From Pseudomonadota bacterium (GTDB taxonomy: Bacteria; Desulfobacterota; Desulfarculia; Desulfarculales; Desulfarculaceae): a stretch of DNA of 64,000 nucleotides. Where the stretch lies: the NCBI GenBank assembly GCA_018896025.1, contig JAHIND010000004.1, forward strand, positions 66,512-130,511, in the 5' to 3' direction. The notes under the pieces are model-generated. The model had not been told where the DNA came from. It did no database searches and was given only the letters and a program-made list of their open reading frames with translations. Position numbers and translations under genes: made by a program. This document shows, piece by piece, positions 52,035 to 54,357 of this stretch; the stretch's first letter is position 1, and every line of letters starts with the position of its first letter.

Positions 52035-52298
52035 CTAGCTTTTGCCAAACGTTAAAAAAGCGAACAGTACCCACATGATGAAAGCCAGCGGGAAGGAAGG
52101 CCAAACCCACCAAAGTTTCAACGGTCTTCTGGTCCGGAAGACAAACATCAAAACCACGCAAATGGTCCACAGGAGGGGAGCGGGCCAATAGGGCCATTCA
52201 ACCCAAAAAGCCCCAAATAATGAGAACCCATCCGCCACGGTAAATATGCCTATAGCCCAGGCGGCCAAACCGAAATAGATGTCAATGTTTTTACGCAT
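52035..52298 (-). CDS. Trp-rich 3-TM paralog 5 (putative immunity protein), 87 aa
   Basis: MRKNIDIYFGLAAW...PLLWTICVVLM...KLWWVWPSFPLAF; G-rich RBS. Confidence 0.8.
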   Translation of the reverse strand: MRKNIDIYFGLAAWAIGIFTVADGFSLFGAFWVEWPYWPAPLLWTICVVLMFVFRTRRPLKLWWVWPSFPLAFIMWVLFAFLTFGKS

Positions 52299-52313
52299 GT
52301 GCCCCATCCACCA

Positions 52314-52583
52314 TTAGGCTATTTTTTTCCCAAACATCATAATGGCGAACAGCACCCACATGACAAAAGCCAGCGGGAATGAGGGCCAGACCCACCAAAG
52401 CTTCAGCGGTCTTCTGTTACGGAAAACGAACATCAACACCACACACAGAGTCCATAAAGCGGGGGCGGGCCAAGAGGCCCAGTAAACTGCGTATCCTCCC
52501 AAAGAATAGAATCCCGCGACAAAGGTGAAAATCCCAACAGCCCAGGCGGCCAAGCCGAAAAAAATGTCGATGTTTTTGCGCAT
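52314..52583 (-). CDS. Trp-rich 3-TM paralog 4 (putative immunity protein), 89 aa
   Basis: MRKNIDIFFGLAAW...PALWTLCVVLM...KLWWVWPSFPLAF. Confidence 0.8.
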   Translation of the reverse strand: MRKNIDIFFGLAAWAVGIFTFVAGFYSLGGYAVYWASWPAPALWTLCVVLMFVFRNRRPLKLWWVWPSFPLAFVMWVLFAIMMFGKKIA

Positions 52584-52605
52584 GTGCCCCCCAATCATCT
52601 CGAGG

Positions 52606-52869
52606 TTAATACCCTCCTAGGAATAACACTGCAAAAGACACCCACAAGATGAAAGCCAACGGGAAGGAGGGCCAGACCCACCAAAGTTTTATCGGCCTTC
52701 TATTGCTAACAACAAACATTAGCACCGCGCACAAAGTCCACAAACTTGGAGCCACCCACTCCATCCAAGTGAAGCGAAATTTCCAGAAAGGCCAAAACGC
52801 CGCCATCACGGCCAATAGGCCCACCAGCCAGGCGGCCAGGCCGAAAAAAACGTCCAGGTTTTTGCGCAT
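52606..52869 (-). CDS. Trp-rich 3-TM paralog 3 (candidate cognate immunity protein), 87 aa
   Basis: Starts 10 nt after the toxin stop; MRKNLDVFFGLAAW...KLWWVWPSFPLAF. Confidence 0.8.
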   Translation of the reverse strand: MRKNLDVFFGLAAWLVGLLAVMAAFWPFWKFRFTWMEWVAPSLWTLCAVLMFVVSNRRPIKLWWVWPSFPLAFILWVSFAVLFLGGY

Positions 52870-52878
52870 GTGCCCCCC

Positions 52879-53529
52879 CTACTTCGAAGGCTGATAAAGG
52901 CCTGGATAGACAAAATTCCGAAATTGCCTTCCCCACACTCGCAATTTGAATAACCATATCGCTAATCTTCTATAGTCCGTTGCATCTTCCACACTATCCG
53001 GCGGATTTCGCCACATGCGGGGATCGTCGGACAATGACTGCAAGTTATTAATTAACTCCCTATCGCAATAATCTGCATCAAACAATTCGTAGCAATCATC
53101 ATGTCCGGAACAGGCGGCGTCCAAATCATCCGCCGGGCTGGGATCGGCTGCACCTTTCGCGGATGAATCTCGTGTGTCCCGACCGGCCGACCAATACTTG
53201 CCGCACCATTTTTGGTACACAGGCCCATCGAGCAAGCCTCGGCCATTGTTCTTCCAATAACCACCGCCAGCTTTATCTCCCCCCTCGATAAAACCGGGCT
53301 TGCCATCCTGGCTCTCAAACTCCACCGTGGTGGCGGTGATGGGCTCGGTGTGGCAGCGGCAGTTAGGATGTAGCGGCGGGGTGGGCATTTCCGCCGTGGA
53401 TAACTGCCCTGCCTGGGGTTGAAAGTAAAACTCCTTTTCATGCCAGCGGGCGCACTGCTCGCAACCGCTACCCGGTCGGCTGCTCAACCATCGGAACCCC
53501 ACCACCTTGACTTGAGTCTTGGATGCCAC
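52879..53529 (-). CDS. MuF C-terminal motif fused to a secretory-type phospholipase A2 domain (putative toxin), 216 aa
   Basis: GGGAGG RBS + GTG 53529; GFRW...CEQC...PPLHPNCRC then YQKWCG...PADDLDAACSGHDDCY...YCDREL. Confidence 0.8.
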   Translation of the reverse strand: MASKTQVKVVGFRWLSSRPGSGCEQCARWHEKEFYFQPQAGQLSTAEMPTPPLHPNCRCHTEPITATTVEFESQDGKPGFIEGGDKAGGGYWKNNGRGLLDGPVYQKWCGKYWSAGRDTRDSSAKGAADPSPADDLDAACSGHDDCYELFDADYCDRELINNLQSLSDDPRMWRNPPDSVEDATDYRRLAIWLFKLRVWGRQFRNFVYPGLYQPSK

Positions 53530-53650
53530 CGCGCACCTCCCATCCCAGCAGAGTCGGCCTGGAGGCGGGGCACCCCTCACGGCGTGCGTCGCCCCTTTTC
53601 ATGCGAAGCAGTGTGGCCCAACTAGCGGCTGCGGCCCAGGGATAGAGCAC

Positions 53651-53682
53651 AAAAAAGTGCCCCCTCGGAAGAGGCACTTTTT
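53651..53682. terminator. Bidirectional intrinsic terminator between paralogs 1-2 and the toxin gene
   Basis: AAAAAGTGCC / GGCACTTTTT inverted repeat with A/T tails on both sides. Confidence 0.75.
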
Positions 53683-53789
53683 ACCGGTGTGAGCGAGATG
53701 GCCAGGGACCTTGTTGGCCTTCGGGGCTACCGCCCCACAACCAAACCTTCACCATCGGTCTGGGCAGTTTAATACGACATGGCAGATGG

Positions 53790-54071
53790 TCAATGCCCAC
53801 CGCCACCTCTGCTCATTCCAATCAGCATGATTGCTAACATCACATACACCATAAAGGCCAGCGGGAAGGAGAGCCAAACCCAGCAAAGCTTCAAGGGCCT
53901 TCTGGTGCTGAAAACGAACATGAGGACCACGCAGATGGTCCACAAAAGGGGAGCTGGCCAGTAAGGCCAGATGGCCCAGTGAAGGTGCACATAGGAAAAA
54001 CCGTCCAGCACGGTGATGATCCCCACCGCCCAGGCGGCTAGACCGAAAAAGATGTCCAGGTTCTTGCGCAT
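53790..54071 (-). CDS. Trp-rich 3-TM paralog 2 (putative orphan immunity protein), 93 aa
   Basis: MRKNLDIFFGLAAW...KLCWVWLSFPLAF. Confidence 0.8.
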   Translation of the reverse strand: MRKNLDIFFGLAAWAVGIITVLDGFSYVHLHWAIWPYWPAPLLWTICVVLMFVFSTRRPLKLCWVWLSFPLAFMVYVMLAIMLIGMSRGGGGH

Positions 54072-54093
54072 TATCACCCCGGTCGGCGGCAGG

Positions 54094-54357
54094 CTAAGAG
54101 AGCCGCGCCGCAAGGACGAACAACGTAACAAGCAACAAAAAGGCCAGAGGGAAAGAGGGCCAAACCCACCACAGGGTTTTCAGCCTGCGCTTGCTGACCG
54201 AATACATCGCAACCACGCACAAGACCCATAAACACGGCCCTCCCCACAGCTCCCAATGGAACCAAATTCTCCCAAGGGGAAAGAACGACGCTATGGCGGT
54301 TGATATGCCCACCAGCCAGGCGGCCAGGCCGAAAAATATGTCCAGGTTTTTGCGCAT
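54094..54357 (-). CDS. Trp-rich 3-TM paralog 1 (putative orphan immunity protein), 87 aa
   Basis: MRKNLDIFFGLAAW...TLWWVWPSFPLAF. Confidence 0.8.
   Translation of the reverse strand: MRKNLDIFFGLAAWLVGISTAIASFFPLGRIWFHWELWGGPCLWVLCVVAMYSVSKRRLKTLWWVWPSFPLAFLLLVTLFVLAARLS

Follow-up and report, generated by a model that had tools for sequence, protein, structure and literature searches.

We analysed 64,000 nucleotides of contig JAHIND010000004.1 (hereafter the window), which come from a groundwater relative of sulfate-reducers. One locus on the minus strand of the window combines five paralogous genes for small tryptophan-rich membrane proteins (P1–P5), a putative toxin gene with a domain resembling secreted phospholipase A2 (PLA2), and a third gene that lies past the membrane-protein genes. 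Its features are listed here along the minus strand, with window coordinates.

P1, 54357–54094, minus strand: small membrane protein of 87 amino acids; loop type A (ASFFPLGRIWFHWELW); variable loop at 54238–54291.
P2, 54071–53790, minus strand: small membrane protein of 93 amino acids; loop type B; C-terminal tail SRGGGGH; variable loop at 53952–54005.
Hairpin, 53652–53682, minus strand: 15+15 nucleotides, then a T run; located between P2 and the toxin gene; a consensus match only.
Putative toxin gene, 53529–52879, minus strand: 216 amino acids; GTG start after GGGAGG; the largest possible open reading frame reaches 53580.
Toxin residues ~6–68, 53326–53514, minus strand: C-terminal zinc-ribbon piece of a phage MuF (SPP1 gp7) domain, CxxC...PPLHPNCRC.
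Toxin residues ~88–178, 52996–53268, minus strand: secreted-PLA2-like core, WCGKYWSAGRD...DDLDAACSGHDDCY.
Toxin residues 179–216, 52882–52995, minus strand: hypervariable tail of 38 amino acids.
P3, 52869–52606, minus strand: small membrane protein of 87 amino acids; loop type C (AAFWPFWKFRFTWMEW); variable loop at 52750–52803.
P4, 52583–52314, minus strand: small membrane protein of 89 amino acids; loop type D; variable loop at 52464–52517.
P5, 52298–52035, minus strand: small membrane protein of 87 amino acids; loop type E; variable loop at 52179–52232.
Third component, 51960–51325, minus strand: 211 amino acids, or 209 from a second ATG at 51954; motif WWRGRLGTIAGTTVHAVANR in the C-terminal part.

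The ATG of P3 lies 9 nucleotides past the toxin stop codon, and an open reading frame for a small membrane protein stands directly 3′ of the toxin gene in every toxin-bearing locus. The hairpin looks like a terminator, and its place between P2 and the toxin gene suggests two transcription units, one of P1 and P2 and one running from the toxin to the third gene. No RNA sequencing run was found to contain this stretch. G+C content falls to 0.50 at 52–53 kb, against about 0.65 around it. An initial annotation of this DNA had treated the five small genes as one array; the genes are real and share a strand, but they are not contiguous, because the toxin gene and the hairpin separate P2 from P3. It had also overlooked the MuF fragment that starts its 'lipase' gene, and the open reading frame at 51960–51325 as a member of the system.

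A family of small membrane proteins with two variable segments

A family profile recovered exactly five copies in the window, at E values of 1e-44 to 1e-48 that set the five-copy family apart from chance. The proteins, 87–93 amino acids long, are 51–56% identical to P1 and share the motifs MRKN(I/L)D, GLAAW, P.LW..C...M and (K/T)L(W/C)WVW(P/L)SFPLAF; they align over 87 columns, with the first gap not before column 88. Each ATG is preceded by its own G-rich ribosome-binding site (a run such as GGGGGGCAC or GGGGTGA), and all five reading frames are uninterrupted. In these respects, and in the five loop strings, which match exactly, the initial annotation of five intact, gap-free paralogs on one strand proved accurate. 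Its single hypervariable loop corresponds to residues 23–40, but a second variable segment, the C-terminal tail from residue 74, has to be set beside it. Residues 23–40 and residues 74–86 both show a non-synonymous difference of 0.45 per site among the five copies, compared with 0.11–0.21 elsewhere, and column entropy across 54 distinct family members reaches 1.88 and 1.85 bits in the two segments versus 0.63–0.99 in the rest. The loops of these 54 members sort into about 12 types at 60% identity. Aromatic residues take 6–8 of the 18 loop positions.

Hydropathy gives three hydrophobic segments per protein. Counts of lysine plus arginine are 2 at the N-terminus, 3–4 in the second loop (RR loop), 0–2 in the variable loop and 0–2 in the tail, and by this rule of thumb the N-terminus and RR loop are predicted to be cytoplasmic and the variable loop and C-terminal tail periplasmic. 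The counts agree with the earlier placement of the variable loop by the positive-inside rule, and this prediction now takes in the tail as well.

The small membrane proteins had no match in Pfam, NCBIfam or PHROG, and a profile search of 5.8 billion proteins returned only 24 clusters. Those clusters that carry a family- or genus-level name all belong to Desulfarculaceae (Desulfarculus, Desulfoferula); the others have broad names or consist mostly of unnamed metagenome proteins. Their members include four tandem genes of Desulfarculus baarsii DSM 2075 (Deba_3136–3139) and one of Desulfoferula mesophila.

A putative toxin with a secreted-PLA2-like domain

Homologs of the toxin fall into only 12 clusters, 213–239 amino acids long except for one frameshifted copy of 158 amino acids. 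Residues H143, D144, Y147, C109, G110 and C140 are invariant in 11–12 of these homologs, and the PLA2 domain has four conserved cysteines, two of them invariant and two nearly so. The toxin thus carries both the catalytic His-Asp pair of the C-x-x-H-D-x-C-Y helix and, ahead of it, the C-G motif of the calcium loop. When the toxin profile was compared with PDB sequences, 60 of the 60 best matches were secreted PLA2s, all aligned over the catalytic helix (best E 5.6e-4). Structure prediction, run without the D. baarsii row in the alignment, gave an AlphaFold model with a predicted local distance difference test score (pLDDT) of 79, whose top six Foldseek matches are rice PLA2 (probability 0.96–1.0, target template modelling (TM) score 0.43–0.64). 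Sequence and model together point to a PLA2-like C-terminal domain with the secreted-PLA2 fold, for which calcium-dependent lipolysis at the sn-2 position would be the expected activity.

The N-terminal part has a different source. Against PF04233 the toxin aligns with positions 60–111 of 112, below threshold and short of a complete MuF domain. Several PHROG families annotated 'head morphogenesis' or 'minor head protein' match its N-terminus (E 1e-5 to 1e-8), and the first ~60 positions of the toxin profile match 24 of 24 viral MuF proteins (domain E 9e-6 to 6e-12), the similarity being limited to the first ~70 residues.

A MuF domain probably divided between two genes

The third gene has 62 representatives at 50% clustering, nearly all of 200–215 amino acids, and has no family name in Pfam or NCBIfam. 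Its protein is modelled as all-helical (pLDDT 85), and the best Foldseek matches in BFVD are mostly MuF-like minor capsid or head-morphogenesis proteins (probability ~1, query TM score ≤0.75). For eight of these BFVD targets there is also a match with the first ~56 residues of the toxin, at a root-mean-square deviation of 2–4 Å; on one of them, I1TJV5 (242 amino acids), the third gene covers 199 columns and the toxin piece 55, together roughly the whole protein. Of 48 members of the third-gene family, 12 have a match to phrog_2468 'head morphogenesis' (best E 1e-4) and two have one to PF04233. In hhalign, the third gene and the cores of 24 viral MuF proteins align colinearly over 210 columns (E 6e-4, probability 28%), ending just before the zinc ribbon, and the third-gene motif WRxRLxTIArT..HAv.NR falls on the MuF 'iarTE' helix. 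The zinc ribbon of viral MuF proteins begins at residue 170–245, in agreement with the length of the third gene.

These matches make it quite likely that one MuF domain has been split over two genes in permuted order, with its C-terminal piece fused to the PLA2 domain, the immunity-type genes in the middle and its N-terminal piece at the end. Modules with no more than 21–45% protein identity share the split point and the gene order, so the split would be old. We found no full-length MuF–PLA2 fusion among the 12 toxin clusters or the 24 viral MuF genes; the top BFVD match, A0A6J7X060 (519 amino acids, 235 aligned columns, E 1.7e-3), might be one. A phage origin of the PLA2 part and of the third gene was tried and dropped, since tblastn against 50,697 phage records gave no match to either and the MuF piece alone matches phages. 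Likewise, open reading frames of the 24 viral loci had no blastp match in the window except that of MuF to the toxin, and gene tables around eleven related loci list metabolic and regulatory genes only.

A MuF domain in two pieces and in the 'wrong' order could be debris of a decaying prophage, a broken MuF–PLA2 fusion lying among duplicated hypothetical membrane genes with no current function. Frameshifts do occur, in the toxin of locus L020, in one copy and the third gene of L015 and in the third copy of L003. We nevertheless rejected this explanation as highly improbable: debris would not be expected to keep its split point and order at 21–45% protein identity, toxin clusters (bar the frameshifted exception) and third-gene representatives that are so uniform in length with no full-length fusion among them, a ratio of non-synonymous to synonymous proportions of difference (pN/pS) of 0.30 overall between orthologous copies, or five intact window copies with ribosome-binding sites. 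An excisable circle that would rejoin the third gene to the toxin was also considered and set aside, as no flanking direct repeats were present beyond the paralogs themselves. Contigs of four groundwater metagenomes over the region contained no circular junctions, although contigs cannot prove their absence.

A recurring module with variable arrays

Together, the toxin gene, one to four small membrane-protein genes and a third gene of ~200–211 amino acids form a recurring three-part module, which is confined to Desulfarculaceae-type genomes and occurs at three or more unrelated chromosomal sites; a context search with closer alignment gave close relatives only. The related loci whose gene neighbourhoods were compared with the window carry L-numbers. 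A minimal module (toxin, one small membrane protein, third gene) is found in L007, L017 and L019, and D. baarsii has the toxin plus four small membrane-protein copies. In the clade of the window, the module occupies a hot spot between an aldehyde oxidoreductase gene and an HTH_26/DUF2975 pair (49.7–54.4 kb), the content of which differs by genome, with P1 always the first gene past the aldehyde oxidoreductase gene. Extra cargo in the hot spot consists of a porin-like gene in the window and an amino-acid permease in L005 and L045, with nothing extra in L003, L009 and L044. The arrays compare as follows.

Window: two copies before the toxin gene, toxin present, three copies after it, third gene present.
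L009: three copies before the toxin gene, toxin present, three copies after it, third gene present.
L044: two copies before the toxin gene, toxin present, two copies after it, third gene present.
L045: no copies before the toxin gene, toxin present, three copies after it, third gene present.
L005: no copies before the toxin gene, toxin present, two copies after it, third gene absent.
L014: toxin absent, five copies, third gene present.
L016: toxin absent, four copies, third gene present.
L015: toxin absent, four copies, one of them frameshifted, third gene present and frameshifted.
L003 (Desulfoferula mesophila): toxin absent, two intact copies and one frameshifted copy, third gene absent.

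Copy number, which the initial annotation had suggested comparing among close relatives, thus ranges from 2 to 6 diverged copies per array, with and without a toxin. Candidate orphan immunity cassettes are seen in the toxin-less arrays L003, L014, L015 and L016 and, elsewhere, as extra copies beside the cognate position.

In the distant modules L021, L020 and L018, a PD40 beta-propeller replaces or joins the small membrane protein in the middle slot. The L021 beta-propeller reading frame extends upstream to a lipoprotein signal peptide, MRKLNVIILFLPLLTIISC, which places this protein in the periplasm, and the use of one slot by two unrelated periplasm-exposed proteins fits immunity against a periplasm-acting enzyme. 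A PLA2 that has the HD motif is encoded in all of the distant modules, which makes the enzyme a constant of the family.

Two of the divergent loci show further peculiarities. L020 contains a degraded module (3310–6630), in which the toxin is broken into three frames; the third gene persists, as does another small copy that is intact. One small membrane-protein reading frame there continues without a stop into a signal-anchor and PD40 beta-propeller. L019 (4950–6648), from the same metagenome-assembled genome as L009, is a second, very divergent module at another site, and its PLA2 domain lacks cysteines on either side of the HD motif (DEAFQAHDYGY), a pattern that recalls the PLA2 of parvovirus capsids.

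Toxin tails pair with loop types

Seven close variants of the toxin are 0.80–0.85 identical in pairwise comparison over residues 1–178, the MuF piece and PLA2 core, and only 0.35 identical over residues 179–216. Across the ten loci with toxins of this clade, the class of this tail pairs one-to-one with the loop type of the next gene, seven classes with seven types.

Tail class of the window, L046, L047 and L050: next gene of loop type C.
Tail class of L048: next gene of loop type E.
Tail class of L009: next gene of loop type F.
Tail class of L044: next gene of loop type D.
Tail class of L005: next gene of loop type I.
Tail class of L045: next gene of loop type H.
Tail class of L049: next gene of loop type K.

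P3 is accordingly listed here as the candidate cognate immunity gene for the tail class of the window toxin. P4 has loop type D, the type that comes first after the different toxin variant of L044, and types F and D recur in L014, which has no toxin; cognate and orphan immunity genes would be expected to share types in this way.

The gene directly upstream of the toxin has its own signature. In six of the ten loci (window, L009, L044, L046, L047 and L048) it is a paralog with the SRGGGGH tail, whereas no copy precedes the toxin gene in L005 and L045. The ends of these upstream paralogs (P2 in the window) read SRGGG(G/E)H or are similarly glycine-rich, and such ends are absent from toxin-less arrays. 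The glycine-tailed paralog and the toxin gene may form one recombination unit, or the paralog may have a separate role.

A separate role of this kind would suit an explanation in which the small membrane proteins serve to export or dock the PLA2, acting as a holin-like channel or membrane anchor and not as inhibitors. The toxin has no signal peptide of its own, the proteins are small with three membrane segments, and the 9-nucleotide spacing to P3 suggests co-expression. An exporter would have little use for 2–6 diverged copies, though, and would not be expected to persist in toxin-less genomes (L003, L014, L016) or to be interchangeable with a periplasmic lipoprotein beta-propeller, and co-variation with the toxin tail suits recognition better than transport. 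We therefore consider export or docking an unlikely function. Its holin variant was discarded: the vicinity has no endolysin, lysis cassette or phage genes, the copies are several and diverged, they occur in toxin-less arrays, and PHROG gave no match.

Old loop types shuffled by recombination

The initial annotation attributed loop variation to diversifying selection, which in the sense of a ratio of substitution rates (dN/dS) is not borne out. Between paralogs, synonymous difference is saturated (0.64 overall and 0.83 in the loop, with a loop pN/pS of 0.54), so that dN/dS between them is not estimable; the values given here are proportions (pN, pS) and not formal dN/dS. Between same-type genes of different genomes, the loop pN/pS is 0.29, equal to that of the rest of the gene, which indicates purifying selection. 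The pN/pS data neither demonstrate positive selection nor rule it out.

Loop types are conserved across genomes and gene order varies. From 54430 to 53110 the window is 100% identical to the close strain L046 (1.3 kb), compared with 90–93% in the adjacent aldehyde oxidoreductase core gene; an island more alike than its flanking core gene suggests that the island moved recently from one strain to another. In P5, identity to L046 drops to 60–78% across ~180 bp that span the loop and second membrane segment, type E in the window and type G in L046, and the gene ends are 98–100% identical. Such a divergent patch between conserved ends shows loop cassettes to be swapped by recombination via those ends. 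Sequence comparison thus describes about 12 old, discrete types, each conserved and shuffled by recombination, and not ongoing hypervariation; 'discrete, recombining specificity types' should replace 'diversifying selection'.

A probable tandem repertoire of immunity-type proteins

Considering these observations together, we think that the five genes probably constitute a tandem repertoire of inner-membrane immunity-type proteins against a PLA2 toxin that would act in the periplasm, a reading that appears well supported by comparative evidence. Recognition of different toxin alleles, as first suggested for these paralogs, is retained in it on account of the conserved toxin module, the toxin-less arrays, the pairing of tails with loops and the predicted periplasmic side of the loop, and has lost its appeal to diversifying selection and its restriction to one loop.

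In the mechanism that we propose, each small protein would span the membrane three times, with its N-terminus inside and its C-terminus outside, and would present the aromatic-rich loop (residues 23–40) and the C-terminal tail at the periplasmic membrane surface, where a secreted-type PLA2 would dock. P3 would neutralise its own toxin by recognising the hypervariable C-terminal helix or the membrane-binding face, and P1, P2, P4 and P5 would protect against toxin variants from neighbouring strains. Recombination between the conserved 5′ and 3′ gene ends would give rise to new types and disseminate them. The MuF fragment of the toxin and the downstream helical protein could reassemble into a MuF-like domain that serves as a targeting or loading module for the toxin.

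More tentatively, and with considerable doubt, the MuF halves that bracket the immunity genes may reassemble and, without a linked prophage, load the PLA2 toxin into a portal-containing particle, pass it through one or send it by another route, and the three-segment tryptophan-rich proteins may be the first immunity family for a bacterial toxin of the secreted-PLA2 type, working in the membrane interface and not as soluble inhibitors.

Several results weigh against the proposed toxin–immunity function. The PF00068 score of the toxin is 19.3 bits (E 0.0016), under the Pfam curated cut-off of 32.1, and the protein shows no signal peptide, known secretion domain or marker of type V, VI or VII secretion. 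No secretion or phage packaging genes occur within 8–10 kb in any locus, and no portal, terminase or capsid genes were found in the window or in the 4–10 kb on either side of the eleven loci. The signs of MuF in the third gene are individually weak (Foldseek E 0.04–0.5, besides the hhalign probability and best PHROG E value given above). The catalytic domain is identical in kind in every module, whereas classical polymorphic toxins swap whole toxin domains, and the dN/dS analysis gave no sign of positive selection. Finally, in L048, where the toxin tail bears a partial resemblance to that of the window, the type-C gene takes the second place after the toxin and not the first, which makes 'first gene = cognate' an assumption.

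The constancy of the PLA2 domain is what one would expect of the effector in a system of intracellular conflict, whether an addiction module or anti-phage defence by abortive infection. In such a system, the MuF pieces would serve as a decoy for sensing the portal or a packaging protein of a phage, the PLA2 would destroy the membrane, and the membrane proteins would restrain or localise the PLA2. MuF-derived parts without a surrounding phage would suit such a system, as would a variable, low-G+C chromosomal hot spot and an island more similar between strains than its flanks, and phospholipase effectors are known from defence, for example the patatin-like CapV of CBASS. We regard this as improbable, because PADLOC-DB 2.0 models matched neither the toxin nor the membrane protein nor the third gene, and because tandem diverged copies, toxin-less arrays and tail–loop pairing are hallmarks of defence against the toxins of other cells and not of phage sensing. 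The four conserved cysteines in the PLA2 fold and a lipoprotein as alternative middle gene also point outside the cytoplasm.

Other features of the window

Two further dips in G+C content lie at 12–13 kb (0.54) and 22–24 kb (0.56–0.59), against ~0.65, and a third, to 0.50 at ~61.1–62.2 kb, coincides with a Fic-domain gene, as judged from the genes tabulated for the colinear contig L043. The Fic-domain gene is absent from the same position in L003, L005 and L009 and is thus probably another small insertion. The porin-like gene of the hot spot (50064–51218, plus strand) has a weak Porin_2 match. About 50 bp at its 3′ end (51168–51218) have ~3 times the surrounding assembler depth in metagenome X1 and, in four metagenomes, mark a break point from which the sequence continues in several different ways; this is probably a repeat common to porin paralogs or to strain variants.

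Relation to known toxin–immunity systems

By analogy, the closest functional parallel appears to be the type VII-secreted lipase toxin of Staphylococcus aureus with its partners, TslA–TilA–TlaA1/TlaA2 (PMC10730906), with which the locus has no protein family or sequence in common. Both would involve a phospholipase toxin acting outside the cytoplasm (predicted here), tandem non-identical immunity genes that vary in copy number between strains and are kept where the toxin is absent, and small helical partners from the same operon that complete the toxin targeting signal (proposed here). They differ in the enzyme (a lipase fold versus the secreted-PLA2 type), in the immunity protein (a DUF576 lipoprotein versus a three-segment membrane protein) and in the targeting part, an LXG-like helical domain for Gram-positive type VII secretion there and two MuF pieces with no known machine here.

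MuF polymorphic toxins (Jamet et al. 2017, PMC5576092; Zhang et al. 2012, PMC3482391) likewise have a MuF-derived N-terminal part, a C-terminal toxin domain and a small open reading frame directly downstream. In those systems, MuF is complete in one protein, adjoins portal or terminase genes and lies in prophages or their remnants in 96% of cases (PMC5576092); here, the toxin holds a partial MuF, the remainder is a separate gene past the immunity genes, and no phage genes are nearby. Of the features by which polymorphic toxin–immunity systems are defined (PMC3482391, PMC4436062), a small open reading frame after the toxin, a variable and co-varying C-terminus and candidate orphan immunity genes are present, with co-variation limited to the 38-residue tail and the catalytic domain always a PLA2; at the N-terminus, where such systems have a domain for a known secretion route, the toxin has the MuF fragment. 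No immunity family is listed for Tox-PLA2 polymorphic toxins by Zhang et al. (PMC3482391).

Rice group XI secreted PLA2 (PDB 2wg7/2wg8/2wg9), the best structural match, shares with the toxin the motif D-x-L-D-x-x-C-x-x-H-D-x-C-Y and a glycine-containing loop after 'CG'. At 18–20% identity, the toxin differs in having four cysteines instead of 12, an added MuF piece, a hypervariable last helix and a bacterial origin. Russell et al. reportedly described, in 2013, lipase effectors of type VI secretion and their periplasmic immunity proteins (Tle/Tli). Tle proteins are phospholipases that attack the membrane from the periplasmic side, and Tli proteins are periplasmic, often lipoproteins and sometimes several tandem paralogs. 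Attack by a phospholipase from the periplasm and neutralisation there are proposed for our locus as well; Tle proteins, unlike the toxin, adopt an alpha/beta-hydrolase or phospholipase D fold and come with linked VgrG, Hcp or PAAR genes, which were not seen here. Small polytopic inner-membrane immunity proteins are known from S. aureus TsaI, which protects against TspA and occurs in variable tandem arrays, and from pore-forming colicins. The small membrane proteins would resemble these in shape, location and in facing a membrane-directed toxin; the toxins concerned are pore-forming or depolarising and non-enzymatic, and the proteins have no sequence relationship to ours.

The locus is built from uncharacterised families, with an unusual split phage domain. 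Its split and reordered MuF raises the question of how a toxin that carries half of a phage head-protein domain leaves the cell with no adjoining phage. As D. baarsii DSM 2075 is a sequenced type strain with a four-copy version, experiments look feasible. The locus offers a candidate immunity family for PLA2 toxins with a readable specificity code, in which about 12 loop types would be set against classes of toxin tail. To our knowledge, and short of a systematic search, no toxin–immunity array has been described from anaerobic groundwater relatives of sulfate-reducers; if the proposed function is true, interbacterial toxin–immunity arrays would extend to these organisms.

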